Positions 37,077 to 60,896 are shown, counted from the stretch's first letter. The stretch: DNA of 64,000 nucleotides from a phage (GCA_011939005.1 GCA_011939005.1_4858.1); one strand, 5' to 3'. Numbers and translations: made by a program. Notes: a model not told the origin generated them from the letters alone.

Positions 37077-37114
37077 TATAAATACTCCTTAAGATTAATG
37101 GTCGATTACATACG

Positions 37115-37130: not shown

Positions 37131-37134
37131 ATAT

Positions 37135-37896: not shown

Positions 37897-37939
37897 ATTC
37901 CTTAAGTGATAGTCGGTTAAAAGATTACCAATGCAATCT

Positions 37940-37964
37940 CACCTAGGTAATATATATCTGAAAT
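37940..37964 (-). promoter_or_regulatory. early-type promoter motif TTTCAGATATATATTACCTAGGTGA (copy 3)
   Basis: 25-nt motif identical to copy 2; directly downstream of terminator 37999-38020. Confidence 0.5.
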
Positions 37965-37998
37965 CTTTTCTAATCCGAGACAAAAAAAGAAAGGGTAA

Positions 37999-38020
37999 AT
38001 CCCCCACCGAAGTGGGGGAT
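37999..38020 (-). terminator. intrinsic terminator hairpin, UUCG loop
   Basis: stem ATCCCCCAC/GTGGGGGAT with CGAA loop on +; A-run 37982-37993 on +; follows stop of 38033-39292. Confidence 0.55.
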
Positions 38021-38032
38021 TCGCCAGTCTAA

Positions 38033-39292: not shown

Positions 39293-39369
39293 CTTTTTCT
39301 ATCCTCTAGGCGGTACGCCGTGTACCGCCATTAATGATTTGTCAACCGACGTTTGGTACGTAAAGCGGA

Positions 39370-40647: not shown

Positions 40648-40703
40648 TTGTTTCGGTTCCTTTGGTTATAACCCAATTACACGCCCCTAGATAAGGGGCC
40701 CCC

Positions 40704-41261: not shown

Positions 41262-41284
41262 GAGACTCTCCTGATAATACGGTC

Positions 41285-42217: not shown

Positions 42218-42227
42218 TCTTTTCCCC

Positions 42228-43346: not shown

Positions 43347-43368
43347 TTTTAACTAAACTCCGGAGTTA

Positions 43369-44631
43369 ATGATGAGTAACGAGACCGATAAGAACGATCC
43401 GGGGTATGACCCGAATACCGACTACGACAATTCGTATCAAAACCCGAATAATATCGATGCAGTACCATCGGTCGCCGACTACTTTGACCGTCGACTGTCC
43501 GATGCGAAACCCACCACGGCGTACAACGTTAATGATGAGTTATCGGGTTGGAATGACCGTATCCGTCTTACGTTAGGTTTGGGTCTGGCTGCGCAGCGTG
43601 TGACCAACCCCTACATGGGGTTCAACCATATGATGGCGTCGAACCCGACGCCTGTTAACCGTGAGTACGGTGGCCTAACCTTCATTACCCGCCCTGACTT
43701 CAACTTGTGCTTTGACAACATTGCCAACTCGCGCAAGATGTCGAACATGGCTTCTCAGCCGAAATCGTCACTCGACTATTCCATTCTGGCAGCGTTAGAC
43801 CCAGATTTTGAATTGGGGTTCTCTGATTCACCGATGGAAGATGGGCGAAGAAAGAACCGTTTGGGCACGCCATTCATGAAGGACATTATGTTTGACAATC
43901 TTCAGGCATTCATACCATTGCTGAGTACACAGATGCTGAGCCTCTCGGGGATGCCTGACCAGTCTGTCGATAACTGGATGTCTGAAGAAGGTTTAATGCG
44001 CGAACAGTGGGGTATGGTTGACTCCACACATGAAATCAATAACCAGTACAGTATGTCGATGTCGCTGAACAACCCATACGGCAACCCAATCATGCGAATG
44101 ATGGGCGTGTGGCTGGAGTATATGTCCGGCATTAAGATGGGTAAGTTCAAACCGAAGATGCGTAATTCCATCCAGCGTCGCATTGACTACCAATCGAGGA
44201 TGTACGGGTTTAAATACGACGCGCTCGGAAACATCACTCGTTTCTGGACAGCGTGTGTTTGTTGGCCGATGAACGATAACGCCGGTCAAATGGCGAATGT
44301 CGATAACACCAAGCCTCAATTAAATGACGACACCACAATTAACCTCAACTGGCAATGCATCGGGGCGCGCTTCGATGACCCATTGTACATGGAGATGTTC
44401 AACTTGACGGTGTCTATGTTTAACCCGGATATGATGCCGCAACCAGGGAGCGTTGCAGCGGGCAACTTTATCCCGATTGCTGAAGACCAGCTTGTGCCGA
44501 TTGCACCACAGCTACTACCGCTGTTCAACTACTACGGCTATCCGCACATCGACTCCCTGCGTCGTAAACTGACCTGGTATGTTTATCAGGCAGATTACCA
44601 ATTCATCCTTAAACGAGCGGGCTTACTGTAA
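43369..44631 (+). CDS. hypothetical protein, possible structural protein
   Basis: 420-aa ORF, GGAG SD; stop overlaps next start (TAATG). Confidence 0.5.
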   Translation: MMSNETDKNDPGYDPNTDYDNSYQNPNNIDAVPSVADYFDRRLSDAKPTTAYNVNDELSGWNDRIRLTLGLGLAAQRVTNPYMGFNHMMASNPTPVNREYGGLTFITRPDFNLCFDNIANSRKMSNMASQPKSSLDYSILAALDPDFELGFSDSPMEDGRRKNRLGTPFMKDIMFDNLQAFIPLLSTQMLSLSGMPDQSVDNWMSEEGLMREQWGMVDSTHEINNQYSMSMSLNNPYGNPIMRMMGVWLEYMSGIKMGKFKPKMRNSIQRRIDYQSRMYGFKYDALGNITRFWTACVCWPMNDNAGQMANVDNTKPQLNDDTTINLNWQCIGARFDDPLYMEMFNLTVSMFNPDMMPQPGSVAAGNFIPIAEDQLVPIAPQLLPLFNYYGYPHIDSLRRKLTWYVYQADYQFILKRAGLL

Positions 44632-47591
44632 TGACTACGAAAACGTACGACGCATTATCGAAAGACTTGCTGCTGATGGCACATAACCCATCGGCAATGC
44701 AGTCATTAATGCTGAACCAGCTCCAAGACGTGCAGGACGCCGACGGGCAAATCCTGCTACGTGACCCGACCGACCCGGTGGTCTACATGACCGAGGTCGG
44801 AATTACGATGGGCCACACGATTATCCAGGGCGATCGGGACACCATTCCGAAAATGTTCCCCTCTATGGCACAAACTCACGACGATCTGTTCCGCCACATG
44901 TCTGACGTGGATTATGTCGATGTTTTTGCCCAGCCATCACAAGCGACCTTACTGCTGCTTCTAGATGTCGACTCTCTATTAGCGAAGGCGATGCCGTTAA
45001 ACGTGGCAGGTATTCGTAAAGTCGTGATTCCACGGGATACCGTCTTTACTGTTTCAGGTTACAACTTTGCCATCCAGTATCCTATCGAAATTCGAGTGCT
45101 GCCGTATGGTACCGTTGATAATCCAGCCTTCCAGGTCTTGTGGATTACCGAAACCCAGTCACCGATATCGCCCGTAACCACTAACGCGTTGGACTGGGAG
45201 TTGACAAGTGTTCCTAGCACACCGTCGCAGATACTGGCCATCCGTATTCCGGTGATGCAGTACAGTGTAAAGGACGAGAACGATACGTTGTTGGGGCAGA
45301 ACACGTTTGTGATGACGCGCACGTTCACCAACAAGTTCTTCTACGCACGGGTGTGGAATAAACCGTCCAATTCAAACACCTGGACAGAAATCCATCACAC
45401 GCACAGTCGTGACGTTTACGATCCAAACACACCTACGGCGCTGATTCAAGTCGTTAACCAGTCCATTCGCTGTACGATACCGTCTATCTACATGGCGAAG
45501 AACCTGGTAAGTGGTGAAATCCGCATGGACGTATATACGACCATCGGGCCACTCGACCTCGACGTTTCTGCATTTCCGGCGGACGAGTACACCTTCTCAT
45601 TGCGCGACTTGAACGGTGAATACGATGCGGGATACATCAACCCGTTGAAATCATTCTCCATCAAAATGCTGGTTGCGGAAGAAGGCAGTTACGCCACTGG
45701 GGGGCGTACACAACTTTCGTTTGATGAGTTGCGTGACCGTGTGGTAAACAATGCAGTGGGGATTCGCAAACTGCCAGTAACAGAGAAGCAGTTAGAAGCC
45801 ACGGTATCGGATTACGGCCTGACCTTGTCCAAGCCGAACGATTACGTAACTGGGCGTACTTACTTCCTGACTGCGCCGATGCCGGAGTCCACGTTATCTA
45901 AAGTGAGTTCCCCTATCGGGACCATCACCGCCCCGCTGTACTTTAGCTGGGATGAACTGGTGAAACTGCCGACGGTCCGTATTAACGGCAACCGTTTGAC
46001 GATTGAGCCAGATACACTGTATCGCTTTACGGATACCAGTCTGCAAATCGATGCGGAGATGACCATCCTTGCGAAGACCATGCGTAAAGAAGATTTGGTT
46101 AACGCGGGTAACACTAACCGTTACCTGTTCACGCCGTTCCATTACGTGGTGGACATTAACAACAAATCTTGCGATGTTCGTATTTACCAACTCGATAAAC
46201 CGCAGCTAAACTCAAAACGTTTCGTTAGCACCAACGTGACAACGGAGCTGAGTGTTGTCACTGCAGATTATCAGATTGAGAAAACGGCCGAAGGTTATAT
46301 CCTGCGCACTGTGACTAAATCAGAACCGCCATACCAGGCGTTAAGTGATGACCAGGTCTTTGCGCAGATTTCCTTCTCGCCACGCAACGCAGACGGTAAG
46401 TTGGCGTACATCAACGGCACCTTAGTGGGTCGTCAAGGTTCGGAGCGTGTATGGGAATTCTTGTTGAAAACCAATCTCGATGTTGACCGTAACGATGAGT
46501 TGATTATCAACAACACCCGAATCACCACCGAAGTGGATGTGGACACACCTGCACCGTTGTTAACCGAGTATAACGTGTTCTACGGCTGTACGGGTTACTA
46601 CCCCGGTAATTACGAACGCGCTGAAATGGATACAATGATTGTACCGCCTGCGCGCGATGGTATTGGGATTACTCATGAGATTTTCAAAATCGAGCTGGGT
46701 AAAGCCATGTCCTATTACTGGCGAAAAGCACGTGCAGTAACGGACAGCATCAACTACGAATACTACCAGAAGGATGTTCTGGCGTATTGGGAAAAGGATG
46801 TTATTAAAACCAAAGACGACGGTGTAACGCCTGAGTATACGTACGACCCTAATGCTGTTCCACCGTTGCAAATCACGTACCTGCATCGTAAAGGCGATCC
46901 GAAAATAGACCCGGCCACCGGTGAACAAGAAATCGCACACCACGTTGGGGAGCAAATCTTCGACGGGAACGGTCAGCCTATTATTGCGAAACCGCGCAGT
47001 ATTAAGTTCCGTAGTGAAATGGCTGTCTTCGATGCCCGTTATAAGTTCGCAACCTCGAAAGCGGTTAAAGCGTACCTTGATAGCGTAATTGACAACATCA
47101 TCAACTATGTTACGGTGGTACTGCCTAATTTGAAACCACTGCTGTTGGAGCAAACTGAAGGCTTCTTTGTTCCTATCACCACGATGGGTTATATCGACGT
47201 ACGTACCGAAGACGGGGTTGTGTCACCACTGCCTGCTGAAAACCAGTTCACTGTCAAATATTACCTCACGGCAGCGAACCGCGCAAACAGCGAGCTTCTG
47301 GCACAAATCCGGAAACGGACTTCGCAAGTCATTAACGATTATCTGTCAACACATCTGACCGTTTCAGCAACCGAGATTGGTAATGCGCTACGCACCACGC
47401 TTAACGATGCCATTATCGGTGTTGAACTCGACGACATGGGGCCAGATAAAGACCTGCGACTGTTCACTGTCATTACCGAAGCGGCACGTGCCACGATTGG
47501 TAAGAAGCTCGATATCGAAGCCAACGGCGACATCGGTTTGAAAGATGACATCGTACTGTCGTACAACCGTCACGATACCGAAAAAGAATAA
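44631..47591 (+). CDS. hypothetical large protein (986 aa), possible structural protein
   Basis: long ORF translationally coupled to 43369-44631; followed by bidirectional terminator. Confidence 0.5.
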   Translation: MTTKTYDALSKDLLLMAHNPSAMQSLMLNQLQDVQDADGQILLRDPTDPVVYMTEVGITMGHTIIQGDRDTIPKMFPSMAQTHDDLFRHMSDVDYVDVFAQPSQATLLLLLDVDSLLAKAMPLNVAGIRKVVIPRDTVFTVSGYNFAIQYPIEIRVLPYGTVDNPAFQVLWITETQSPISPVTTNALDWELTSVPSTPSQILAIRIPVMQYSVKDENDTLLGQNTFVMTRTFTNKFFYARVWNKPSNSNTWTEIHHTHSRDVYDPNTPTALIQVVNQSIRCTIPSIYMAKNLVSGEIRMDVYTTIGPLDLDVSAFPADEYTFSLRDLNGEYDAGYINPLKSFSIKMLVAEEGSYATGGRTQLSFDELRDRVVNNAVGIRKLPVTEKQLEATVSDYGLTLSKPNDYVTGRTYFLTAPMPESTLSKVSSPIGTITAPLYFSWDELVKLPTVRINGNRLTIEPDTLYRFTDTSLQIDAEMTILAKTMRKEDLVNAGNTNRYLFTPFHYVVDINNKSCDVRIYQLDKPQLNSKRFVSTNVTTELSVVTADYQIEKTAEGYILRTVTKSEPPYQALSDDQVFAQISFSPRNADGKLAYINGTLVGRQGSERVWEFLLKTNLDVDRNDELIINNTRITTEVDVDTPAPLLTEYNVFYGCTGYYPGNYERAEMDTMIVPPARDGIGITHEIFKIELGKAMSYYWRKARAVTDSINYEYYQKDVLAYWEKDVIKTKDDGVTPEYTYDPNAVPPLQITYLHRKGDPKIDPATGEQEIAHHVGEQIFDGNGQPIIAKPRSIKFRSEMAVFDARYKFATSKAVKAYLDSVIDNIINYVTVVLPNLKPLLLEQTEGFFVPITTMGYIDVRTEDGVVSPLPAENQFTVKYYLTAANRANSELLAQIRKRTSQVINDYLSTHLTVSATEIGNALRTTLNDAIIGVELDDMGPDKDLRLFTVITEAARATIGKKLDIEANGDIGLKDDIVLSYNRHDTEKE

Positions 47592-47597
47592 AAAGCA

Positions 47598-47623
47598 CTA
47601 CCCTCTCCCGAAGGAGAGGGTAG
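47598..47623. terminator. bidirectional intrinsic terminator between convergent genes
   Basis: 11-bp stem CTACCCTCTCC/GGAGAGGGTAG with CGAA loop; T-run on + after, A-run before. Confidence 0.6.
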
Positions 47624-47632
47624 CCTTTTATT

Positions 47633-49366
47633 TTATTCGCCGTCAAGCATGTTTTTGCGATTATTGCCTTTCACCAACGGGTTACGTTTGGCCAGGTTCA
47701 GTATCGTCTGCAATGTAGCGGCAGCACTGCAACAACGACGCACCAACGACAGGTTACGACGCAAGCCGACGAAGAGGTCTTCGTCACCGTCTGGGGAGAA
47801 TAACACCATCGAGAGTTCACGACCGTCGGTACGCAGGCCAGAAGGCTGATTAAGCTCATTCATGATGACTTCGCTAATCAGGTTAACGTATTCAACGTTA
47901 TCCTTGGTTGCTTTCTGGAACTGCTCCAACACTTTAATCGTGTTGTTAACCGCCTTATCCAGTGCACTGTAACGATTCAGGTTAGTCGCAGCGGTGTCGT
48001 TGGTAAAGCCTTGTTTACCTAACGTTACCACTACAGCCAGCAACTCACGTTCGTCACCAACCGATAACGTGCCTGCCTGGCGCATTTGCTCTAAGCACTC
48101 GCGTCCCAAGAACGCAGATGCTTGTGCGTTGACCAATACCTTACCAGGCACGAAGTCCACACCATCGTCATGACCCACTAAACCACGAACTTTGTTTTCT
48201 GGGATAACGACCAAAGGTGCAGTAGCGTATTCGAATCCTTTGCGGGAAACGTCGCTGATGATGAAGTTCATCGTGGTGTTCAGCTGCGCTAACGCCTGAC
48301 CGAAAATAAGCGCGGTGTCGTGTGCTGCTTTGTTAACTTGCTTACCGTTGTGCGTGGTGGTTGAACCTTGCTGATTCTTAAAACCTTCGGCGACGCTTGG
48401 GTCAATCATCGCTTTAAAGGCACTCTGGAGCGAGCCAAAGTAACCGATAAGTTCGCTGGCAACATTCGACATCTGATGGAAGTTCAACAGGTTCGGAATA
48501 CGCACACCGGCTTCGCGAGCAGACTTCGGTAACGCCTGCCAGGCTTTCTTACCCACTTCAATCGGGTAGATACCGTACGTCACGTTGTGTTGTAACAGGG
48601 TGTCTAACAGATCGTGAATAACCTGCTGGCTTGACTGACGTTTCTTAGTGTAGCCTTTGAACAACTCAGTGAACGGCGAACGACCCAGCGCGCTACTCAA
48701 GTCGTTCAGATACTCTTCCGCGTTCATGTTCGTAAACACTTCGTCGGCCATCGCGATAGCCAAGTTCAGGTTTTCCAGGTCACGACCTTTCAGACCCTTA
48801 GAGGCTTCGATGTATGCATCTTTCACTGCGCTGATTTTCAGCTGACCAATGATAGTATTTTCGGTCTGGGAGAAACTCTCTGCTTTTTCGCCGACTTTCT
48901 CAGCGTAACCTTCGCCGTCAAATTCGCCATTACCAGCAAACCCGTTACCGTTGCTGATAATCCAACCGATGATTTTGATAATCGCGGTCATGATCAACAC
49001 AACCAATCCCACTTTACCTGCATTTGCCCAGGATTCGAGCGCAACAATAGTCTCTTTCTGGTGCGTGCGGGTATAGTTCGAGGTCAGGATTTTGCGAACG
49101 GCTTCGGGAATTGTACCTGGGCGAGAAGATTCAACAGCGACAGCGACATCTTTCGACAGACCTGCGCGACGCACTTCGTCAAGAATCGCGTCAATTTGCA
49201 GAATCAGTCGAGAGCCGTAGATTAAGTCAGCTTCGTTGCGTTGCATGTACAGATTGAGCTGGTTGACAGAATCAATACGCTCGGCCATACGTGAACGCAG
49301 GACTTCACCGATCTCCCCCAAACGCCATTTGGGGTGGGTGGCGTTACCTGTCATTTCCATGCTCAT
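47633..49366 (-). CDS. hypothetical membrane-anchored protein
   Basis: 577-aa ORF; hydrophobic segment VGLVVLIMTAIIKIIGWII; stop of upstream gene overlaps start. Confidence 0.5.
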   Translation of the reverse strand: MSMEMTGNATHPKWRLGEIGEVLRSRMAERIDSVNQLNLYMQRNEADLIYGSRLILQIDAILDEVRRAGLSKDVAVAVESSRPGTIPEAVRKILTSNYTRTHQKETIVALESWANAGKVGLVVLIMTAIIKIIGWIISNGNGFAGNGEFDGEGYAEKVGEKAESFSQTENTIIGQLKISAVKDAYIEASKGLKGRDLENLNLAIAMADEVFTNMNAEEYLNDLSSALGRSPFTELFKGYTKKRQSSQQVIHDLLDTLLQHNVTYGIYPIEVGKKAWQALPKSAREAGVRIPNLLNFHQMSNVASELIGYFGSLQSAFKAMIDPSVAEGFKNQQGSTTTHNGKQVNKAAHDTALIFGQALAQLNTTMNFIISDVSRKGFEYATAPLVVIPENKVRGLVGHDDGVDFVPGKVLVNAQASAFLGRECLEQMRQAGTLSVGDERELLAVVVTLGKQGFTNDTAATNLNRYSALDKAVNNTIKVLEQFQKATKDNVEYVNLISEVIMNELNQPSGLRTDGRELSMVLFSPDGDEDLFVGLRRNLSLVRRCCSAAATLQTILNLAKRNPLVKGNNRKNMLDGE

Positions 49367-49806
49367 GAAATTTGCCCTTTCAGTTCTGCCATGTAGAAAC
49401 CAACCACTTCCATAAAGCGGCTAATCCACAGACCGACGGTTTCCCAGATATCTTCCCCGAGTGCCTGGTTGAAAATCTCACGAACAGAGAAACTTTCCAG
49501 GGCTTTAGCGCCGCCATACACGTTGCAGTAACGATTGCAGTACAGACCCACGGTCATGTCCTCAATCACGCCCAAATCAACACAGTACAGCTCGTTAACG
49601 TCAGAGACGATATTACGCATTACCGGACGTAAAAACGTCCCAGCGGCCTCTGCAGCGCCATATTGGCCATTATCAGCCAGTACCGCGTTATACGCCAGTG
49701 AGAAAGCAACCAGGCCGGTCAAAGCACGCTGGGCGTGTACGCCTTTCCCTTCGTTGGTACGTTTGAAATCCAGTACCAGGTTATTTAAAGAAACTTTATG
49801 CGTCAT
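49363..49806 (-). CDS. hypothetical protein
   Basis: 147-aa ORF with AAGGGTA SD. Confidence 0.45.
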   Translation of the reverse strand: MTHKVSLNNLVLDFKRTNEGKGVHAQRALTGLVAFSLAYNAVLADNGQYGAAEAAGTFLRPVMRNIVSDVNELYCVDLGVIEDMTVGLYCNRYCNVYGGAKALESFSVREIFNQALGEDIWETVGLWISRFMEVVGFYMAELKGQIS

Positions 49807-49821
49807 GTTAAGTACCCTTAC

Positions 49822-51174
49822 TTAGGAAGAAGTCGCCTGACTAAGCTTCGCAGAAGCCACACGCAGGTCATTAGAAAGATAGCGCTCCATCGTACGCTGA
49901 TAATCCACCCCAGCACGTTCACGGCGACCGCCAGGGGTCAGCGTTTTCATGATGAAGCTAAAGACGTTGTCTTTGTCTTTCACGGTTTTCAGTAGTTCGT
50001 CGATAGACGCAATGCCCTGCAGAATACGTTTACGATGTTCGTTCGCTTCTTTCGTGGTACTGCCTTTTAAGGTGTTCAGCTCTTCCACTAAGTTACGACG
50101 CATCGTCTCAAAACGTTCCTGCGGCGGATCGTAGATGGTGTTGCGTGGGTCGTTCACAATCAGGCCGAACGCGACTGAGATAGTCGTGAAGAACAGGCCA
50201 ACTGGATTAGTCGAAGCCACAATCAGCAGCGAAACGTTAAGCATCTCCAGCATCAGATGCACGCCGTAGTTCATGTACGACGCGTTCCGGCAGAGATAGA
50301 ATTGAGACGTTTCGATTTTGTACAGGGCTGACGCCAGGTACGGGGCTGCACCAAAGCGAGCTGCGAAGTCATCTGCAGCACGTTCCCAGGTACGGTTAGC
50401 GAACCCTTCCGAACCGGTAACAAACGGACGCTCAAGCAGAATGTCTGTCACTAGATGCATGTAGATGTTCTCTTTAGACATCTCTTTGCAGATAGTTTCC
50501 GGCTGATTCACTTTGGTGTTCAGCATACGTTCAACGTCTTTTACGACTTTTAAACGCACGGTCGGGTCTTCTGTTTGCATCATGCGGTTCGCTGCAGCAT
50601 CCGCAATCAGGTTCGTTACTACCGTACGCATCAAGGTACGGAAATAGTAATAGATGTGGCCGACTTCATGTAGAATAATCGCCGCGACTTCTAAATCCGT
50701 TAACTCGATACCGGTCAGTAGTTTCGGGGTCAGCCAAAGTGGGGACGGCACCTTGCTGAGTTCGCCTGAAAGCTTCGCATTTTTATCGTCGAACTCGCCG
50801 TTCAGCTCGTTCTCTTTTAAGAACTTACTGTAGACATCCAGGTCGATGTTACCCTGCACCATCTTGCGTTGCAGGTCGGCGATGATTGGGTTGTTCGCGT
50901 CGAGCTTCGGTGGCTCCACACCCGCAAACACAACGTCCGCCACACCTAAGTCGGACCCGTTACGAGGCAGGACTGTAATACCGTTGTTGTCAAAGACCCA
51001 GGCAGCAATACCAGAACTCTGATAACCCGCTGGCGAGAAGTCGCCCGCATCACGGAACTTACGTACCACTTCCGCCAAAGAGGCGAGTTTCTTTTTATCT
51101 TGGAATCCGATGGATTCCGAGGCCACGGCTTTCGCGTCGGCCAACGAGGTTATGTGCTTTTGCCAGTGTCCCAT
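49822..51174 (-). CDS. HExxH zinc metallopeptidase-like membrane protein, putative
   Basis: AIILHEVGHIYYY contains HExxH; C-terminal hydrophobic helices (VSLLIVASTNPVGLFFTTISVAFGLIV); AAAGGAACG SD. Confidence 0.4.
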   Translation of the reverse strand: MGHWQKHITSLADAKAVASESIGFQDKKKLASLAEVVRKFRDAGDFSPAGYQSSGIAAWVFDNNGITVLPRNGSDLGVADVVFAGVEPPKLDANNPIIADLQRKMVQGNIDLDVYSKFLKENELNGEFDDKNAKLSGELSKVPSPLWLTPKLLTGIELTDLEVAAIILHEVGHIYYYFRTLMRTVVTNLIADAAANRMMQTEDPTVRLKVVKDVERMLNTKVNQPETICKEMSKENIYMHLVTDILLERPFVTGSEGFANRTWERAADDFAARFGAAPYLASALYKIETSQFYLCRNASYMNYGVHLMLEMLNVSLLIVASTNPVGLFFTTISVAFGLIVNDPRNTIYDPPQERFETMRRNLVEELNTLKGSTTKEANEHRKRILQGIASIDELLKTVKDKDNVFSFIMKTLTPGGRRERAGVDYQRTMERYLSNDLRVASAKLSQATSS

Positions 51175-51244
51175 TTAGACGTTCCTTTTAGAAAATACGT
51201 TACCCACAAATCAGTATAGCAGACACCATATTTGAGAGTAGACC

Positions 51245-53029
51245 ATGGAAATCAATACCTATTACGCACCCGAGGATGTCATCGCTAAAGAGTGCAAGCA
51301 CGTCGCTTATGCGACGGACGAAGAAAAAGAAAATGACTTTGTCCTCATCAAAGAGGTCATCCATACTAAGGATGGCAGGCTTATCCCGCGCTTGGTAATG
51401 CGTGAGAATTTAAAGCGTCCGGTGTACGTTACCCGTGAAGAATATCGTAACCACCAGGAGAAAAAAGAGTTCGAAGAAAAAGGAAAATGTCAAGAACTCT
51501 GGACTACTGATGCGCAGATGGCGAAGACGTTGCAGATGGGTTTAGGTGCACGTTTCCCTGACCCGAAAAAGAACCTGCGCCGAGTCTGTACTAGCCCGTA
51601 CGTTTATTGGGCCGACTTACCGATTACCAGCTGGATTAAACAGAAATACTTAAAGCGCTGGCCGAACAATATCAGTCCTAACCGTCTTTGCGTATACGAC
51701 GTGGAGACTAACGAAATGGACGGCACGAAGGAACCGTGGATCGTGTCATTTATCTTAGACGATGAAATCCATTTCTTTGGTGCTAAGAACTACATGGACC
51801 GCATCGGTAAAAACGCGGAAGAAGTCATTCTCAAAAAAGCGCAGGAACTCTTAAGCAAAATCGAATTCGATGAGAAAGACAAAAAGACTGGCGAAAAGGT
51901 GACAAAGACCAAAGACATTATCAGCGGTTATAAAATATTCACCTATACCTGCGCTACGGCAGGGCAGTGCATCGTCAGGATGTTCGAAGAAATTCATCCA
52001 CGTCTTCCTGATTTGCTGGTCGCATGGAACCACCAGTTCGATATTTCACGCATGTTGGAAACCTTGCAGAAAGAAGGTATCGATCCACTGGGCGTCTTTA
52101 ACCATCCGGATGTTCCGGAGAAATACCGTCGTCTATGGTTTAAAGAAGACCAGGCGAACAAAAAGACAGAATCCAAGTCACTCACCAAAGCACCGTCACA
52201 ACAGTGGCACGTACTCTACTGTACTGCGTCTTTCTACTGTGTGGATGCCATGGTGCTGTTTCGTTCGTTGCGTGTCCACGAAGGGCAACGTCCTTCGTAC
52301 AAGTTATCTGCCATACTGTACACCGAACTCGGTTTACACAAACTCGACATTCCTGGACTGCCGTATGAAGATAACCTGCAATGGCACATAAAAGCACAAC
52401 GGGACTACCCTGCCGAATATGCCGTATACAACATGATGGATAACTTGTTAATCGTGTTGCTGGATAAGAAGACGAACGACCTGTCTTCAGCAATATCCAT
52501 TCTGGCAGGTTTCTCAATGTACGATATCTTCCCGTCGCTACCAAAACGTATCTGCGTGGCCTTTACCTATTATCTGTATGACAAAGGATACGTCATCGGT
52601 TCCGTAGGGTCTGCAATGCGTAACGATTACGATGAAGAGGTTATCGGTACAGACGGTTGGATTGTTACCCTGACAGCATGTATGAATGCTGAGAACGGTC
52701 TGAATAACATTCTGGAGGAGATTGACGAATATTACTCTGCGTTCCGTGGACAAACTGCGGATGCGGACTTAACCCAGGCTTACCCATCGGCCACAAACAT
52801 GATGAACCAGTCTCGTGAGACCACACTCATTGAGCTGCTATCCATCAATGGGGTTAGTGAAGAGATTCGACGTCGCACGGGCGTCAACTTAACTGCTGGG
52901 CGAGTTAATGCCATGGAAATAGCGACAGACTTCTTCTGCTTACCGGACAAAGACACTGTCCTGTCTACGTTCTTACGTAAGCAAGGGGAAGTAGTGACAG
53001 AGCCTATGGAGTACATCTGCGGGTTCTAA
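51245..53029 (+). CDS. DEDDy-type 3'-5' exonuclease domain protein
   Basis: Exo I VYDVETNE, Exo II NHQFDISRM, Exo III YNMMD at family-B-polymerase-like spacing; no polymerase motif A (DxxSLYPS) or C (DTD) seen. Confidence 0.45.
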   Translation: MEINTYYAPEDVIAKECKHVAYATDEEKENDFVLIKEVIHTKDGRLIPRLVMRENLKRPVYVTREEYRNHQEKKEFEEKGKCQELWTTDAQMAKTLQMGLGARFPDPKKNLRRVCTSPYVYWADLPITSWIKQKYLKRWPNNISPNRLCVYDVETNEMDGTKEPWIVSFILDDEIHFFGAKNYMDRIGKNAEEVILKKAQELLSKIEFDEKDKKTGEKVTKTKDIISGYKIFTYTCATAGQCIVRMFEEIHPRLPDLLVAWNHQFDISRMLETLQKEGIDPLGVFNHPDVPEKYRRLWFKEDQANKKTESKSLTKAPSQQWHVLYCTASFYCVDAMVLFRSLRVHEGQRPSYKLSAILYTELGLHKLDIPGLPYEDNLQWHIKAQRDYPAEYAVYNMMDNLLIVLLDKKTNDLSSAISILAGFSMYDIFPSLPKRICVAFTYYLYDKGYVIGSVGSAMRNDYDEEVIGTDGWIVTLTACMNAENGLNNILEEIDEYYSAFRGQTADADLTQAYPSATNMMNQSRETTLIELLSINGVSEEIRRRTGVNLTAGRVNAMEIATDFFCLPDKDTVLSTFLRKQGEVVTEPMEYICGF

Positions 53030-53045
53030 AACAAAAAAAGAAAGG

Positions 53046-53069
53046 CCTCTCTACCCTAGGGTAGAGAGG
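53046..53069. terminator. bidirectional intrinsic terminator between convergent genes
   Basis: stem CCTCTCTAC/GTAGAGAGG; T-run on + after (53072-53080) and A-run before (53030-53045). Confidence 0.55.
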
Positions 53070-53078
53070 TACTTTTAT

Positions 53079-53579
53079 TTAACCGCCAAAGGCGTGCATA
53101 ACCAGCGAACGCAGGTCCGGGTCGTTCAGGCGACGGGCCAGGCGGTCAACATCGTTGGTATCACGAAAACGGCCTTTATCGGCGCAACGTGCGTAACGAA
53201 TCAGCATGTTAATAAAGATAACGAAGACTTCACGCTCGTCACGATTCGGGAAGTTCTCACTGATACGGTTATTAGCAGCCGGTGCGTAGAAAATACCGTT
53301 ACGGTGCTTATTAGCCGCTTCTACAAAGGCGTAGAAACCGTCCAGGAAGGCCTGACCGCGCAGTTTAAACAGCTCACGGAAAGAGTGATGCAGCTTATTA
53401 TACGCATCTTTCTCAGCCTGGGTACCAGATGCTTTGCGTGGACCGGCATTGTTACCTGCTTCATCGAGCATCGTGGTGATCAGTTTAACACGATATTGGT
53501 CGTCGTTGCTGTAAGAAGCGCTATCACGGACCACGCCTTCTGTACGCGGGTCAAGGGTAGTAGTGTCTTTCTTAGTCAT
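53079..53579 (-). CDS. hypothetical protein
   Basis: start at ATG 53579 with AAGGA SD. Confidence 0.45.
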   Translation of the reverse strand: MTKKDTTTLDPRTEGVVRDSASYSNDDQYRVKLITTMLDEAGNNAGPRKASGTQAEKDAYNKLHHSFRELFKLRGQAFLDGFYAFVEAANKHRNGIFYAPAANNRISENFPNRDEREVFVIFINMLIRYARCADKGRFRDTNDVDRLARRLNDPDLRSLVMHAFGG

Positions 53580-53592
53580 GAGGAAACAATCC

Positions 53593-54891
53593 TTAGGTGA
53601 TGTGGAATTTAGGGATGTACTCTTTAACCACGGTTTCACGACCGTGCATCGCACCCATTGCAGTGGTCATAACGTTCGAGAAGCCGGAAGAGATATCCGC
53701 AGCGATTGCCCGTGGCTCTTCTGCTTTGTGTGCAGAGGAGCACGCCGCACAACAGTCTACGTGACCTTGCTGACATAAGATGGGTCGGCGGAGTCGAACA
53801 ACTTTACCAAATTGAGTTTTCAAATACTCTTCGGTGAGTTGGGTAACTTTACCGTTAACCATCGCGTTCATGCCAACATAACGCTTGTAGTTATACTGGT
53901 TAATTACAACTGCATGTGTCAGTTTTGTCCCGCAATCACCAGGTACGATTTTGTGGTTCTGGAAGATCATCTGGATGATACGTACTTGCTCACCACCCTT
54001 AGCGGTTTCTGCACCACGCATGAAGGAACCTTCACGAGTGTCATTGAACTTCTCTACCAGGTACTTCATCCCGGTCTGATCAACTTCCATCAGACTCGTT
54101 GGGATTAAGGTAAAATCTGCACCTTCTTTAAAAGCGGTCTGAATACCATACATCAGCATCAGCTTACGGCGACGCATACGCGCTTTAGGCGAGCTGTAGA
54201 ACTCAACGGACTGGTCGCCACTCAACCACTCTTTATCAAGTTCGTCGAGAGCTTTTTCAATCATAACGATAACCGCAGGGTTATCCAGTTCGTCTTTGTG
54301 CTTCAACAGCAACGCATCACGTACCTTATACGCGTCAGGATGCGTTGTAAGGCTTCTAATTGTTCCTGTTGGGACAATCCCACGACACAACGGAGCAAGC
54401 TCGTGTAGACCCCCTACAAAGCGTCCTATCATGTACGGTCGAATCGCGTCTTCGTTGTCTGGATCGGTGTCATCATATTCCACACAACGCTCATACATCT
54501 CTTTACGGTAGGCTAGTGGGTCACGAGACTCTGCCAGATACGGGAGACGGGTACCGAAAGCGTAATAGATAGCAATCCAGTTAAAGACATAGCGACCCAC
54601 GGTAGTCGGAATGGGACCAGCTAAACCTGGGTACATCTCAGGACGCAATTCAAACTGCTCTTCCGGCACGAACAGCCCTTCATCTTTTTTGCACCCTTCA
54701 ATCGGCACCCATTTAATTTCTTCGTTTTCCCAGTAGTGGGGCAAGCCGTCAATGTAGTTCAGGTCGTATTGCTCAGGTGGCTCACCTTTTTCATTAAAGA
54801 TAGCCACGTTGAAAACCGCAATACGCCACACCAGTCTACGCCAAGCTTCTGCTTTACACGCAGCGACCAGATAATCAATCTTGTTCATCAT
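53593..54891 (-). CDS. RNA polymerase beta-prime C-terminal-like subunit (paralog 1)
   Basis: GDCGTKLTH and RLRRPILCQQGHVDCCAACSS parallel beta-prime DDCGTHEG and VRSVVSCDTDFGVCAHCYG; GGAGGTAG SD. Confidence 0.45.
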   Translation of the reverse strand: MMNKIDYLVAACKAEAWRRLVWRIAVFNVAIFNEKGEPPEQYDLNYIDGLPHYWENEEIKWVPIEGCKKDEGLFVPEEQFELRPEMYPGLAGPIPTTVGRYVFNWIAIYYAFGTRLPYLAESRDPLAYRKEMYERCVEYDDTDPDNEDAIRPYMIGRFVGGLHELAPLCRGIVPTGTIRSLTTHPDAYKVRDALLLKHKDELDNPAVIVMIEKALDELDKEWLSGDQSVEFYSSPKARMRRRKLMLMYGIQTAFKEGADFTLIPTSLMEVDQTGMKYLVEKFNDTREGSFMRGAETAKGGEQVRIIQMIFQNHKIVPGDCGTKLTHAVVINQYNYKRYVGMNAMVNGKVTQLTEEYLKTQFGKVVRLRRPILCQQGHVDCCAACSSAHKAEEPRAIAADISSGFSNVMTTAMGAMHGRETVVKEYIPKFHIT

Positions 54892-55759
54892 CTACCTCCG
54901 CGTCCCCACTAGCGTATATGACTTTCAACGCTTCCAATCCTTTCCGCAAGATTTCTCCAGGCGGGACGTTGTCGACGTTCAACAGGGCAAGGTTCTTTTC
55001 TAAGTCACCGTAAGCCCCATCAAACTCCGCATGAGGAATAATCGATAAGCCCACCGCATACATCGTCAGCAAATCAATTTCGCTAACATCTTCTACGCGA
55101 AACTCTAACGACTGCTGCACCACCGTTAAGTCTGGCTCAGCAGGCAGATTCATAAAGACAAACGCTGACGGGTTCTCAGGGAACAACCGCAAGTAAGCGA
55201 CGATACGCTGTTGACGCTCGTCGTCGCCGTTTCGTTTCTGGCTTTCCAACGACTCTGCTGCTAAGAAGTTCTCCATCACGGTAAGCACGCGTGGGCTGAC
55301 AACAGTAATCAGGTCTTCGAAGTGCAGGTTTTCGTCACCGTAAACATAACGACACATGTTCTCCAGGATATACTCTGGTGTCTCACCAGAGGAGACAATC
55401 CCGTAAAGGGCATCACTGTCTTCGAACTCTTCGAAGGCTTCCAACACACCGTGAAGGATACGTACGGTTTCTTTCGGTTTCTGGAAGACGATTTGTGGAT
55501 TAAGTCCGATACCGAGGCGGTTGCCTAATCCAACCGCTACCTTCACGATAATGGATTCCAGACGGACAGTTTCGTCCGCGGGGTCAGACAACGGGTTGCT
55601 ATAAACATCGGATAACGCCACATCGTAACCGTAATCCATACCGAGCGTCACTAAATCTAGCATCGGTGCTGCACGACCTTCGTGACGGTTGACTGTCAAT
55701 ACAGCCGCATAGTCGGTATAAATATCAATCATGGCTCTGTTCCATAGTGAAAAGGGCAT
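54875..55759 (-). CDS. hypothetical protein
   Basis: 294-aa ORF; start uncertain (ATG 55759 or 55732). Confidence 0.4.
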   Translation of the reverse strand: MPFSLWNRAMIDIYTDYAAVLTVNRHEGRAAPMLDLVTLGMDYGYDVALSDVYSNPLSDPADETVRLESIIVKVAVGLGNRLGIGLNPQIVFQKPKETVRILHGVLEAFEEFEDSDALYGIVSSGETPEYILENMCRYVYGDENLHFEDLITVVSPRVLTVMENFLAAESLESQKRNGDDERQQRIVAYLRLFPENPSAFVFMNLPAEPDLTVVQQSLEFRVEDVSEIDLLTMYAVGLSIIPHAEFDGAYGDLEKNLALLNVDNVPPGEILRKGLEALKVIYASGDAEVDDEQD

Positions 55760-55788
55760 TCATACCAAGGCGAATAAAAAAAAGAAAA

Positions 55789-55804
55789 CGGGGCCGAAGC
55801 CCCG
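55789..55804 (-). terminator. intrinsic terminator hairpin, UUCG loop
   Basis: stem CGGGGC/GCCCCG with CGAA loop on +; A-run 55775-55788 on +; follows stop of 55813-56184. Confidence 0.5.
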
Positions 55805-55812
55805 AATTTCTA

Positions 55813-56184
55813 TTAATGTCCCGTCAGATCTTTCTCCAGCTCTTTTAGCGCACGTTCACCTGCCACCTGCTCGCCGGCTTTGGCGATAATCGCTTTGCGA
55901 CGACGGATATTGTCGAGCATCAGCAGTATCTGCCAGCGGGGGCGGTCGAGGAACTCGTCTATCGACATCCGGTAGTTTTCACCGACCTCTTCACGTAAGT
56001 AAGTGGCGTACCAGATATCGTAAAGACTACCGTATACCGGGTTTTCAAAATCCGACAACCCTACCTGATGGTCGCCGGTATTAAGAGCCAGTGTACGGTC
56101 ATACGCTTCCAGAAGCTCGTTATGGGCTTCCTGATACGTAATAGGACGTGTGCTACGCTGCTTGAAGAGAGAGGTGGTATCCAT
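55813..56184 (-). CDS. hypothetical protein
   Basis: 123-aa ORF; no clear SD. Confidence 0.4.
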   Translation of the reverse strand: MDTTSLFKQRSTRPITYQEAHNELLEAYDRTLALNTGDHQVGLSDFENPVYGSLYDIWYATYLREEVGENYRMSIDEFLDRPRWQILLMLDNIRRRKAIIAKAGEQVAGERALKELEKDLTGH

Positions 56185-56228
56185 CTTGAGCGTTGTAATG
56201 ATTTGCTCGGACGGAACGTCTTCCTGGT

Positions 56229-58199
56229 CTAGCCAATATCGGCGTATTGATCCAGCAAGAATTTCTGAATCTCGGACACCACTCGAGAGAGCACGAAAAA
56301 AACCCTGTCCGGTGAGATGGTAACAATACCACGATACAGACCGTCTTTCTCGCCGTGTGTTTTACCGCACGCCGGGCAGCGTTTACCCATGTAACCGAAT
56401 ACCGCTAAACGTGTACGTTCGTTGTATTCAGCAATTGCGTTTTCAAACTGACCAACGTAGATACGGTCGGAAGACAGCTCTTCCAGCATCTCAACGATTT
56501 TCGCTGTGTCGGTTTCAGTTTGTGGGATAACCTGCATTTCACCGTTTACTTCACGTTGCTCATTAACAGTGATAGATTTCACCATGTGAGCGTAGCGCGT
56601 TAAGCGACGGGCTTCCGCAGTTAAACGCATATGGGATTCACGTTCACGCTCGGTAGCAAATTCAGACAGCGCTGCCGTAGTTGACGCGTTAACGTCTTCA
56701 ATCCACTTCTCGGTGGAGTCAAAGAAGCTACCCAGGGTAGAACGGCCAAATTCAACACGCACGTCGTGGTATTCAAATACCGAGGATGGGTCAACCTGAT
56801 GCGCCGCGATATATTCGCGCTGTTCAGCAATAGAAATCACTGGACGCTCAGTACCGCGTTGACGTGCCCACAGTTGTTTCTGCAGGTCGCTAAACAGACC
56901 GGAACCGAAACGGATACAGCGTGCGATATTCAGCTTCACATCTTCCTGCTGGTTGCAGCCGTCTTCGCCACACATCAGCGTCCATGGAATACCAGACGGC
57001 CACTTCGCCTGCAACGGACCCAGAATAACCAGCCAGTAGTCAGCCAGATCAATGGTATCCAACAGCACAGTACGCAGATCGTTACCCGCACAATCGATGG
57101 TTGCTTCGGTAACAAACTGAAGTGCGAATTCAACCATGTGGCGCATGTACACGCCAGAAGACGACGACAGCATCAATCCGTAGGTCTGCATACCGATGGT
57201 CGCAGTTTCCAGCGTTAGACGCATGTCGAAGTCACAAAGGTCACGTTCATGCGGTGCGCGGAAGCCCACGTAGATACCTGTGGCCGGCAACCAAACCATG
57301 TTCGGAATACCCGACTTACGTACACGACGCAAAGCAGCCAGCGCGCCAGTGTGCATATTGTCACGCGGTGCAATAGCACCAGATGCCTTGCCGTCCGGCA
57401 ACATCACGCGCTGTTCCCAAGCGGTGTCACCACGGTCCAGTGCACCAGCGAATGCCGGTACGCCGTCCTGTAGACGTGGCGGTGTCATGTTCAAAGCGCG
57501 ATAGATGTCGTCGTAAACCTGTTGCTGTTCAGGGCTTTCGAATAGCAGCCGGCCGTCTTTCGGTGAACGTTTAATATTACCGAGGAACTTTTGCAGGGAG
57601 TCTGCAATGATGTTAGGGTCTTGTTTCAGACCAATCAACATCTTCGACTGTGTCAGAATACGATCGGCTTCATCTTCACCCATTTCGGCGGTTTCAGCTA
57701 AATGGGTATTACCGAAGTCAATCTCACGCATCTGTTGTTGTTCCGGAACCTTCGGTGCTGCATCTTCCATTTCTTTTACAGCCGGCTGTGCCGGTGCAAC
57801 CGCTTCCGGAGCTTTTGGCTGCGGAGCAGGTTCTACCGTAGGCGCTTTCTCTACTACCGGTTCCGGGGCACGATGTAGGTGCTCCTGCACCTGTTCAGCA
57901 AAAGTCTGAGGTGCCGGTGGTACAGGCGCAGCAGGTTCAGGCAACGCCTCTTCTACAAACGTCGGACGCTCAAGCTTAGGCTCCGGACGATGATAGTGTT
58001 GGTGATAAACTTCTTCTGCACGGGCAAAAGAAAAATCGGGGTTGGCTTGTTTAATAGCCATGATGATTGCATCCGAGGTCGCGTCATCAGGCACGGTCGG
58101 AAGAATCATCTCTTGTTGGGTAGCAGCCGCCACAGGGGCTGGCTGGTCGGGATTAGGGCGACGGGCATTACCCGGACGCTGATCTTGGATCTCAGACAT
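56229..58199 (-). CDS. hypothetical protein with Pro/Ala-rich N-terminal region
   Basis: 656-aa ORF with GAGGAAG SD; low-complexity PAPxP repeats near N-terminus; CPACGK near C-terminus. Confidence 0.5.
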   Translation of the reverse strand: MSEIQDQRPGNARRPNPDQPAPVAAATQQEMILPTVPDDATSDAIIMAIKQANPDFSFARAEEVYHQHYHRPEPKLERPTFVEEALPEPAAPVPPAPQTFAEQVQEHLHRAPEPVVEKAPTVEPAPQPKAPEAVAPAQPAVKEMEDAAPKVPEQQQMREIDFGNTHLAETAEMGEDEADRILTQSKMLIGLKQDPNIIADSLQKFLGNIKRSPKDGRLLFESPEQQQVYDDIYRALNMTPPRLQDGVPAFAGALDRGDTAWEQRVMLPDGKASGAIAPRDNMHTGALAALRRVRKSGIPNMVWLPATGIYVGFRAPHERDLCDFDMRLTLETATIGMQTYGLMLSSSSGVYMRHMVEFALQFVTEATIDCAGNDLRTVLLDTIDLADYWLVILGPLQAKWPSGIPWTLMCGEDGCNQQEDVKLNIARCIRFGSGLFSDLQKQLWARQRGTERPVISIAEQREYIAAHQVDPSSVFEYHDVRVEFGRSTLGSFFDSTEKWIEDVNASTTAALSEFATERERESHMRLTAEARRLTRYAHMVKSITVNEQREVNGEMQVIPQTETDTAKIVEMLEELSSDRIYVGQFENAIAEYNERTRLAVFGYMGKRCPACGKTHGEKDGLYRGIVTISPDRVFFVLSRVVSEIQKFLLDQYADIG

Positions 58200-58812
58200 T
58201 AGCCGCTTCCTCGGTTTCTACTACAACGTCGTTGTGATCGACGATGGCGTTTTTAGGGAGTTCTTTCGAATTATTAGCCAGAGCTTCAGCCAACAGAACC
58301 TCGGCTTGTTCCACGGTATGACCGTTATTCAGCGCCTGCTTCACGAACTTCACTTTCGCGTTATACGTGGAGAAGATTTCGATACTGGTGCCCTGAATAT
58401 CCATCGCAAGCATGTTTGCCCGCTGGTCAATCAGGGACAGTTCGGTGTGGTCGACGTGGAACTGGTCTTTGATTTCTTTCCACGTTTTGCTGTTATCGTT
58501 CAGCATGTCAAACACCGGCACAGCCTTAGCATCTGCCTCAACAATCAGTTTACCGAACAGCTCTTTGCCTTGCTGACACATGCCAAGGAAAGCCGCCTGT
58601 GCTTCATCCAGCGCTTTCAACGTAAAGGCTTTCAGCTCTTCGTGCGTAATGGCTTCAGTTACTTCACGCTCCCGATCAATTCTGCCTGACAGGAATTCGG
58701 TACTTTCGATAAACACAGCTTGTTTTTTCAACACAGACTGCATCATCGCCTTGACGAAATCGCGGGCGTCTTTACGTGGGTTATAAGCGGGTTTCTTTTT
58801 GCGACGACTCAT
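58192..58812 (-). CDS. hypothetical protein
   Basis: start at ATG 58812 with AAAGGA SD (MSRRKKKPAYNP...). Confidence 0.45.
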   Translation of the reverse strand: MSRRKKKPAYNPRKDARDFVKAMMQSVLKKQAVFIESTEFLSGRIDREREVTEAITHEELKAFTLKALDEAQAAFLGMCQQGKELFGKLIVEADAKAVPVFDMLNDNSKTWKEIKDQFHVDHTELSLIDQRANMLAMDIQGTSIEIFSTYNAKVKFVKQALNNGHTVEQAEVLLAEALANNSKELPKNAIVDHNDVVVETEEAANV

Positions 58813-58872
58813 CGTAATAATCCTTTTGAAATTAGGGGTTGGGTGTATACACAATATACACCCAAAACGTGA

Positions 58873-59256
58873 TTAACTTGCATCGTGTGGAACAGTCACC
58901 CAATCGTGCCATTTTTCAGAGTAAAGACGATAAGCCATCTTTGGATTCTGATCGACACTACCGGCCGGGTTCTCATTCCACAACACGTACGTATATAACT
59001 CGTACGACGAAATGTTACGGATACTTGACGTGCGGGTGACGTAATACGTCAACCCGCGTTGGTTAAGGAACAGGCCGCTGTAATGTTCAGTGACCATGTA
59101 GTAATGAAACGCCTGGTTGATAGTGGCGTCGGTACAGAGTTTCTTAGCGACGTCTTCTACGCCGGGATACGCCTTTAGAATGTTTTCGAGAAAACTTGCT
59201 AAAGTCATTCCGATGTAGGGTGGCAGCGGCTCTGCTGGACGCGGCGGAGTGAGCAT
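58873..59256 (-). CDS. hypothetical protein
   Basis: 127-aa ORF whose 5' part overlaps the 3' end of the helicase gene; start uncertain. Confidence 0.35.
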   Translation of the reverse strand: MLTPPRPAEPLPPYIGMTLASFLENILKAYPGVEDVAKKLCTDATINQAFHYYMVTEHYSGLFLNQRGLTYYVTRTSSIRNISSYELYTYVLWNENPAGSVDQNPKMAYRLYSEKWHDWVTVPHDAS

Positions 59257-60850
59257 GTGATTTCCTTACAACGTAGGGGGATGTCGCGATACGGAACGAC
59301 AATACGACATCCTTGAGTGATTTCTGGCGGGCATTCAAGTAATTGCAATGCTTCGGTACGTTATACGCATGGAATAACCACACCGTTGGGTCTATTTCAC
59401 CCCACTCGTTGTGGAGAATCTTACGTGGACGACCAGCCATCTGTTCGTTCAGTTGCTGGTCTTCTACCGGGGTTGAGATGTACATGTGCACCAACCCAGG
59501 TTTATCGACCGCAGTCCCCGCTTTCCCCGGTGTGGAGATAGAGAAGTCTGCTTGGATAAAGTCGTCATACGAATCACCTGCATTATATTTCGACACCATT
59601 AAGGCGTGGAATATAGGGTCACGCGACAACTTATCTTTCACATACTCGGTAAAGAACTCACACATTGCAACGGTTGCAAAGAGTATCAAACATTTCTGAC
59701 CCGGCTGGTACCGCTTAAGAAACGATTTCTCAACCACATCCCAAATCATGTTTGCGTATTCTAAGTGTAAGTTCTCTTTAATCAGTTTCCCTTCGAAGAG
59801 TTTGTGGTTATACGGCGTCATCTTCGACGCCCACCACGCAAACTTCTTATCATCTAAACGGTAGTACAACGCTTTCACGTCGACTACCGGAACGATAGGG
59901 ATACTGATACGGCACTCCATTGGGAAACGCTCCATGTACCGTTCAGCGATAAACGCTTTACTGGAACCAGGAGTTAGCGTTGCAGACATTTCAATACTTG
60001 GTGGCGGGTTAAGCATTACGCCTGCCATGTAGACCAGGTGGAAATGCTCATGTACCTCATCCATTCCCAACAACCCGATACCCAGTACGTCGTAAAACGT
60101 ATCCAAGTCTACAGGGTTTGTTGCGGCTGTGTTAATGTACTCCTTCAGGAAACGCTGTAGCGTCACCGTAGGGAGGATTATCAGCTTAATCCCACGTCTA
60201 TCCAGCTCACCCGATTTACCCATCTCCAGGGCCTCGTAGATGGCCTGCACGCCGGTACAAACCAGCACGCCATCGCGAGATTCCCTTAAGCCCGTCGGGT
60301 CGTCAGTGGTATCGAATATCCACTTCGGAACATAGGTCGGTCGAATGATAAGACCTGTCCTAACGCCCTTCTTAACAACCACTTTCATGAAGCTTTTAGA
60401 TTTCCCGGCTCCGGTCTGGATGGCAAATATCGTCTGCTGTCGACCTGGGGTCATCGCCGCTTCGCTAACTTCGTTCTGATAATAGAAACGTGAGTTAGGA
60501 TCGGTGACCTCGAGATCGAATCCGTAATTATCAAACGTGCACTTATAAGGTTCTGCACGTTCGGGATGGTGCTCTGTCAGCTTGTACTGAAAAGCATATT
60601 CAATTGCTGCCCGTTGGAGGATATGTTTAATCTTCTCAGCGAACACTTTATGGAAAATGAATGTCCTTAAAGACGGAATGTGGGCGTAGTACGCGTCACC
60701 GCGTTCCGTAGTTATTCGTCCATGTTGCTTGCCCATCTTTGGGGCGTGCATATTCTCTTCGGCCCACGCGAGTATGGCCCTTTCAGCCTGGCGGATGGGG
60801 ACTTCAACCCGTACCCCCATACTCGTGTAAGTCATTTGAATTTCTACCAT
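59144..60850 (-). CDS. SF2 DExH-box helicase
   Basis: motif I IQTGAGKSKS, motif II GMDEVHE, motif III SAT; start at ATG 60850 just downstream of terminator 60875-60893; Arg-rich C-terminal tail. Confidence 0.55.
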   Translation of the reverse strand: MVEIQMTYTSMGVRVEVPIRQAERAILAWAEENMHAPKMGKQHGRITTERGDAYYAHIPSLRTFIFHKVFAEKIKHILQRAAIEYAFQYKLTEHHPERAEPYKCTFDNYGFDLEVTDPNSRFYYQNEVSEAAMTPGRQQTIFAIQTGAGKSKSFMKVVVKKGVRTGLIIRPTYVPKWIFDTTDDPTGLRESRDGVLVCTGVQAIYEALEMGKSGELDRRGIKLIILPTVTLQRFLKEYINTAATNPVDLDTFYDVLGIGLLGMDEVHEHFHLVYMAGVMLNPPPSIEMSATLTPGSSKAFIAERYMERFPMECRISIPIVPVVDVKALYYRLDDKKFAWWASKMTPYNHKLFEGKLIKENLHLEYANMIWDVVEKSFLKRYQPGQKCLILFATVAMCEFFTEYVKDKLSRDPIFHALMVSKYNAGDSYDDFIQADFSISTPGKAGTAVDKPGLVHMYISTPVEDQQLNEQMAGRPRKILHNEWGEIDPTVWLFHAYNVPKHCNYLNARQKSLKDVVLSFRIATSPYVVRKSHAHSAASSRAAATLHRNDFSKFSRKHSKGVSRRRRRR

Positions 60851-60874
60851 GCTGCCCCTCTTCGCACAAAAAAA

Positions 60875-60893
60875 GAGGGGCGCAAGGCCCCTC
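60875..60893 (-). terminator. intrinsic terminator hairpin
   Basis: stem GAGGGGC/GCCCCTC with GCAAG loop; A-run 60867-60874 on +; follows stop of 60897-63002. Confidence 0.5.
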
Positions 60894-60896
60894 GGT

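Follow-up and report, generated by a model that had tools for sequence, protein, structure and literature searches.

The replicative DNA polymerase of phiKZ-like jumbo phages has been described as a family B enzyme (PolB) divided between two gene products. In Salmonella phage SPN3US these are gp18 and gp44, a split subunit DNA polymerase of a kind first noticed in phage OBP (PMC5694885, PMC5105663); as these two papers recount it, the split was recognized in 2012 by sequence analysis (Cornelissen et al. 2012), and the corresponding enzyme of phiKZ was identified ten years after that phage had been sequenced (Thomas et al. 2016, PMC5105663). Iyer et al. (2021) took gp18 (YP_009153312) as the type example of divergent group 1 PolB, and the exonuclease has been stated to be encoded elsewhere in the genome (PMC7824862). 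The molecular basis of this arrangement is given by a 2.1 Å cryo-EM study of phiKZ DNAP-N (gp82) and DNAP-C (gp50) (Basu et al., bioRxiv October 2026, PMC13648687), in which the two proteins form a stable, interdigitated 1:1 complex and the break falls in a large insertion of the palm; DNAP-N bears motif A D562, DNAP-C bears motif C D426, and the exonuclease site is composed of D151/E153/D251/D452. In the primer-extension assays of that study a D562A mutant was without polymerase activity, the core complex alone mainly degraded the primer in vitro, and a third protein, Rhc (an RNase H plus a clamp-like domain), boosted synthesis.

Split PolBs are also found in other lineages. Kelman et al. are said to have described, in 1999, a PolB of Methanothermobacter thermautotrophicus that is split as PolB1/PolB2. 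The PolB of jumbo phage MIJ3 is intein-split, with an HNH endonuclease between the adjacent ORFs (PMC6892783). Both differ from the system described here in lineage and in the mechanism of the split, and in the case of MIJ3 also in that the gene under study has neither intein blocks nor a homing endonuclease associated with it. Finally, the T4-related Aeromonas phages 44RR2.8t, 25 and 31 have a gp43A/gp43B split PolB (Petrov et al. 2010, as cited in PMC2988022), the 44RR halves of which co-purify and are active (PMC2988022). In 44RR we located Exo I-III and motif A (D397) on 43(A) (498 aa), which extends 101 residues past D397, while motif B (K47), motif C (D108-T-D110) and KKRY are all on 43B (391 aa).

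We analyzed a 64,000-nucleotide stretch of phage DNA (hereafter the window), in which a first-pass annotation had marked one gene as encoding a stand-alone DEDDy exonuclease, either the exonuclease half of a split DNA polymerase or an independent nuclease. The gene is a single plus-strand ORF flanked by minus-strand genes, runs with exact coordinates from ATG to stop (Table 1) and encodes 594 aa. At the nucleotide level it is 98% identical to SPN3US 41224..43008 and to about 35 near relatives, and its product is 100% identical to SPN3US gp44 (YP_009153338), the RefSeq label of which is "DNA polymerase". A search of PHROGs places the protein in phrog_3011, 'DNA polymerase' (E=4e-251, residues 4-586). 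Together with the evidence presented below, this leaves us nearly certain that the gene encodes DNAP-N, the N-terminal subunit of the heterodimeric family B replicative polymerase of chimalliviruses.

Table 1. Features of the DNAP-N locus, in window coordinates
Feature	Position	Strand	Basis
DNAP-N gene (SPN3US gp44 / YP_009153338; phiKZ gp82 ortholog)	51245..53029	+	ORF, identity, phrog_3011, Foldseek
PolB N-terminal domain, beta-rich, residues 1-145	51245..51679	+	AF2 strands, Foldseek alignment; boundary approximate
Exo I, D152-V-E154	51698..51706	+	37/37; aligned with RB69 'FDIEV'; phiKZ DNAP-N D151/E153
Exo II, N262-H-Q-F-D266	52028..52042	+	D266 invariant, N262 at least 90%; RB69 'WNVESFDIPY'; phiKZ D251
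Exo III, Y395-N-M-M-D399	52427..52441	+	Y395, D399 invariant; RB69 'YISYNIIDV'; phiKZ D452
Motif A and extension, D506-A-D508-LTQA-Y513-P514-S...N521-Q-S-R-E-T526, first palm strand	52760..52822	+	Conservation; RB69, 44RR and phiKZ alignments
C-terminal helices, residues ~535-594	52847..53026	+	Aligned with phiKZ DNAP-N 589-638; AF2 helices 539-593
Terminator-like hairpin, bidirectional, between 51245..53029 (+) and convergent 53079..53654 (-)	53045..53070		11-bp stem, T-runs

The surroundings of the gene are those of a typical phiKZ-like (chimallivirus) jumbo phage. The window shows the chimallivirus background of multisubunit, split RNA polymerases (RNAPs) and a divergent DnaB: the RNA polymerase β subunits are split, with genes at 53593..54891 and 60897..63002, a phiKZ gp123-type RNAP subunit is encoded at 19336..21114, and 25315..26877 (+) encodes a divergent DnaB-like replicative helicase (Pfam PF20307 divDNAB, E=1e-124). 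This helicase, whose gene is some 25 kb away from that of DNAP-N, also belongs to the chimallivirus replisome. The head proteins encoded include a major one of phiKZ type and internal ones. The window derives from an SPN3US-like Salmonella phage, one of the nucleus-forming phiKZ-like jumbo phages.

Several other observations were made across the window. The phrog_2497 internal head proteins are present as three minus-strand paralogs (39370..40647, 38033..39292 and 4382..5515), two of them in tandem and the third about 33 kb away. Three long plus-strand antisense ORFs, 22640..24787 (715 aa), 17715..18821 (368 aa) and 38264..39334 (356 aa), lie nearly wholly within minus-strand genes, namely those of the major head protein (22463..24763), a phrog_8185 protein (17634..19304) and an internal head protein (38033..39292); these are probably shadow ORFs, although the length of the 715-aa frame is striking. 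Across the 64-kb window (1..64000) ARAGORN detected no tRNA genes, and no Rfam family reached its gathering threshold. Downstream of the DNAP-N gene, the terminator-like hairpin consists of a perfect 11-bp stem with 6 GC pairs (GCCTCTCTACCC-TAGG-GTAGAGAGGT), preceded by an A-run and followed by a T-run and hence with a T-run 3' of the stem on both strands; terminator-like sites are no commoner in this region than in shuffled sequence, so that the hairpin is a consensus match only. Scanning for sigma-70 promoters tells little in this case, since transcription in these phages is carried out by RNA polymerases of their own.

The exonuclease motifs in the protein itself were confirmed. From 94 collected homologs we aligned 37, with identities down to 22%, and the DEDDy set D152, E154, D266, Y395 and D399 is invariant in all 37. 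The first-pass annotation had reported Exo I, II and III at a family-B-like spacing, and this was borne out: the motifs (D152/E154, N262/D266 and Y395/D399) are separated by 112 and 133 residues and are collinear with those of RB69 gp43. The protein itself gave no Pfam match at E≤1, and a single-sequence search of the PDB returned nothing useful, so that a family profile was needed. PF03104 (DNA_pol_B_exo1) was matched at E≤0.1 by 6 of the 37 family members (best E=2e-5), and its curated threshold was not reached by the 594-aa protein; we attribute this to the divergence of the family, which is too great for the Pfam model, since profile and fold searches succeed. When the alignment profile was compared with the PDB, RB69 gp43 was matched (E=6e-10) in three collinear stretches, corresponding to RB69 residues 92-232 (Exo I and II), 272-380 (Exo III) and 404-431 (motif A).

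An AlphaFold2 (AF2) model built on the same alignment has a mean pLDDT of 83, with residues 1-460 above 90, among them strands at residues 12-87 (pLDDT >90). In a Foldseek comparison of this model with the PDB, RB69 gp43 was the best match (E=1e-12) over about 465 aligned columns that include the N-terminal domain, at a sequence identity of 13-16% in the structural alignment; it was followed by Pol ε and archaeal PolBs, and all 50 matches listed are family B polymerases. The model thus predicts a PolB N-terminal domain followed by an exonuclease domain of RNase H-like fold in residues 1-460. RB69/T4 gp43 is the best structural and profile match to the protein, sharing with it the N-terminal domain, the exonuclease fold and the collinear order of Exo I-III and motif A, and differs in that RB69 gp43 is one 903-aa chain with all motifs. 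These results bear on the second reading offered by the first-pass annotation, namely that the protein is an independent DEDDy nuclease of the RNase D/T or DnaQ type, with a role of its own in, say, recombination, repair or the degradation of host DNA and not as part of a polymerase. Stand-alone exonucleases (RNase D, RNase T, DnaQ/epsilon) were absent from the 50 Foldseek matches listed and from the Pfam and PDB sequence searches, and every significant PDB profile match was likewise a family B polymerase. The comparison of PolB with RNase D/T that had been proposed thus came out on the side of PolB.

Beyond the exonuclease, the chain continues into the palm. The motif scan identified D508-LTQA-Y513-P-S, which resembles the family B motif A DxxSLYPS, and D506, D508, Y513, P514 and N521 are conserved in 37/37 homologs. 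In the family profile D508 and Y513 are aligned with RB69 D411 and Y416, the profile sequence "VaDlDvtsaYPsaeailNiskeT" standing opposite RB69 'SFDLTSLYPSIIRQVNISPET' (404-431); taken alone this stretch is a weak match (i-Evalue 63), yet it is in register. An hhalign comparison of the gp44 family with Aeromonas phage 44RR gp43A gave a probability of 95% (E=2e-8) and covers motif A 'LSFDLTSLYPSILRLLNISPEMI', and independently confirms the alignment. By contrast, the same motif scan found neither motif B (Kx3NSxYG) nor motif C (DTDS) in the 594-aa polypeptide, so that this chain by itself is an incomplete PolB. The earlier claim that polymerase motifs A and C are both lacking therefore held for C (and for B as well), but not for A, which is present and invariant. 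Besides its PolB N-terminal domain the chain thus carries an invariant motif for which a pure nuclease has no use, and both features speak against reading the protein as one.

The segment that carries motif A is also the part of the chain that is least well modeled: residues 465-555 have a pLDDT below 50 in the monomer, and beyond them helices are predicted at 539-593. Poor modeling of the C-terminal 130 residues, like the missing Pfam match for the protein itself, would fit a degenerate descendant of a once full-length PolB that has lost its polymerase part and kept relic motifs in a structural or regulatory role. We give this explanation next to no credence. Homologs as distant as 22% identity keep all five residues of the DEDDy set and those of motif A unchanged, which indicates that purifying selection acts on catalysis; the phiKZ ortholog, moreover, is catalytically active (PMC13648687). 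Low pLDDT is itself to be expected in this segment, because it should form a palm β-strand whose sheet partners sit on another chain.

The remaining polymerase motifs are found in a second SPN3US CDS labeled "DNA polymerase", at 11544..13823 (+), which encodes the 759-aa gp18 (YP_009153312); its annotated start codon is GTG. This protein matches Pfam PF20286 divDNApol, "Divergent Family B DNA polymerase" (E=5e-284), and PF00136 weakly. Across an alignment of 28 homologs the invariant residues of gp18 include K157, N160, N161, S164 and G165 (motif B), S418-D-T-D-S-T423 (motif C) and K497-H-Y499, the equivalent of KKRY. A possible motif A of its own in the N-terminal sequence 'DIDVIDAYY' was considered and rejected: D17 is kept in 21/28 and D19 in 17/28 homologs, with N, G and K as substitutions, and the gp18 N-terminus has no invariant acidic residue in this alignment. 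Since the invariant motif A aspartate is on gp44, the polymerase active site must combine both chains. Motif B (K157) and motif C (D419) of gp18 are about 260 residues apart, compared with about 60 in 44RR gp43B, and this gap corresponds to the helical 'palm insertion' of Iyer et al. 2021 and of the 2026 cryo-EM study. A comparison by hhalign of the gp18 family with 44RR gp43B reached a probability of 7% (E=0.005) in the KKRY region only and was not relied on.

The genes for gp18 and gp44 are about 27 kb apart in SPN3US and on opposite strands. The right end of the window corresponds to SPN3US position ~30,253, and gp18 lies about 16 kb beyond it; consistent with this, a tblastn search of the 64-kb window with gp18 gave a best E of 0.59. 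A separate palm/fingers gene, as a split polymerase would have, is thus absent from the window and present in SPN3US outside the span that the window covers, and its absence from the window does not refute the split-polymerase reading. Near-identity to SPN3US-like genomes suggests that this phage's own genome would carry the PF20286 partner too. One gene within the window could be mistaken for it: 19336..21114 (-), which encodes 592 aa and is labeled merely 'polymerase' in RefSeq SPN3US and in phrog_2943, so that its public annotation is ambiguous. A phmmer search matched its product to chain PHIKZ123 in the phiKZ non-virion RNAP structure 7OGP (E=3e-20), and we rejected it as an RNA polymerase subunit unrelated to gp18. 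For the third subunit, Rhc, no RNase H domain was found in ten unassigned ORFs of the window.

The two families travel together among phage records. We counted 310 records with the gp44 family and 322 with the gp18 family, with the same counts per host genus: Pseudomonas 81, Erwinia 62, Salmonella 35, Vibrio 23, Serratia 21, Aeromonas 20, Klebsiella 16, Ralstonia 13 and Staphylococcus 6. No fused gp44-gp18 version was present among the homologs listed, the lengths of which range from 430 to 640 aa (gp44) and from 420 to 807 aa (gp18). In several Salmonella phage records, those of SPFM6, 9, 12 and others (LR535905, LR535907, LR535911 and others), the match to the gp44 gene is broken into about 30 BLAST pieces and the deposited proteins span just 4-11% of the query, which suggests that the SPFM assemblies are riddled with indels that fragment both polymerase genes.

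This co-occurrence completes the case on the independent nuclease. That the exonuclease is a separate polypeptide, with some 27 kb between its gene and that of the polymerase and the two on opposite strands, is what such an enzyme would lead one to expect, as is the tendency of the phiKZ core complex to degrade primer when alone (PMC13648687). Against this stand the strict co-occurrence of the protein with the partner family and the stable, interdigitated 1:1 complex formed by the phiKZ orthologs (PMC13648687), in addition to the fold, profile and motif evidence above, and we consider an independent nuclease very improbable. The term 'stand-alone' is thus correct in that the protein is a separate polypeptide, but its fold, its motif A and its partner are those of a polymerase subunit. 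The idea that it is the exonuclease half of a split polymerase proved right, given the PolB-only matches and the gp18 partner, with the correction that the chain also provides the motif A aspartate. A weaker proposal is that DNAP-N, besides its role in the polymerase, might also act without DNAP-C, as a free 3'-5' exonuclease or with other partners at some stage of infection. Two observations favor it, how the genes are arranged and the dominance of exonuclease activity in the phiKZ core complex in vitro, and we regard it as unlikely; if true, the ratio of the halves might tune proofreading against synthesis.

As a subunit of a heterodimeric polymerase, the protein can be compared directly with phiKZ DNAP-N (gp82, NP_803648), to which it is 33% identical over 560 aligned residues. 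The two also share phrog_3011, the partner family PF20286 and their genomic company (split RNAP subunits and a divergent DnaB). As the phiKZ-type ortholog we aligned the 638-aa protein of Pseudomonas phage 9Ps-7B (phiKZ species), encoded at 1453..3369. In the family alignment phiKZ D151/E153/D251/D452/D562 correspond to D152/E154/D266/D399/D508 of the window protein, all of them identical, and phiKZ DNAP-N residues 589-638, its share of the palm insertion, correspond to residues 535-584. By analogy, the C-terminal helices (residues ~535-594) may be what this chain contributes to the 'palm insertion' domain, which interlocks with the partner. The proteins differ in a 67-residue 'little finger' insertion (350-416), which phiKZ has and the SPN3US-type protein does not, and in total length the window protein falls 44 residues short of its phiKZ counterpart. 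Only some Pseudomonas phages have the insertion (PMC13648687), and it is because of the phiKZ-type insertion that our tblastn matches to Pseudomonas phages fall into two pieces.

The comparison with 44RR separates what is common to these split enzymes from what is particular to this family. Both chains are broken between motifs A and B, here 86 residues after D508. The 44RR cistrons, however, are adjacent, on the same strand and 50 bp apart, whereas some 27 kb separate the genes considered here, which are on opposite strands. The 44RR enzyme is otherwise an ordinary T4 gp43, and its total of 889 aa is normal, compared with 1353 aa in total here, and motifs A and B are separated by 101+47 residues in 44RR and by 86+157 residues here, about 95 extra residues around the split. 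The split in the present family is also family-wide and ancient, not a recent insertion event.

The following picture best accounts for these results. DNAP-N contains a PolB N-terminal domain and a complete DEDDy 3'-5' proofreading exonuclease (D152, E154, D266, Y395 and D399), and continues with the first palm strand, which bears the motif A residue D508 and places Y513 at the position of the steric gate; its C-terminal helices would interlock with the partner. DNAP-C (gp18) would supply the fingers (motif B), the rest of the palm (motif C and K497-H-Y499) and the thumb. The polymerase site would then be composite, each polypeptide giving one metal-binding aspartate, so that polymerization should be impossible for either chain alone, and the exonuclease site lies entirely inside DNAP-N. 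We infer from the phiKZ complex that the SPN3US-type subunits share its assembly and chemistry.

The feature itself is already known, from sequence analysis, from annotation and now from the structure and biochemistry of phiKZ, and the window adds nothing new to it. What the comparison refines is the wording of the first-pass annotation and of some reviews, in that the break is inside the palm and the catalytic centre is common to two gene products, a point already stated in the 2026 preprint (PMC13648687). The proper label for the gene is 'DNA polymerase, N-terminal (exonuclease plus motif A) subunit'; mislabeling as a stand-alone exonuclease or a hypothetical protein persists in many GenBank records of SPN3US-like phages. 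The split PolB is a hallmark of the nucleus-forming jumbo phages, a group of relevance to phage therapy.
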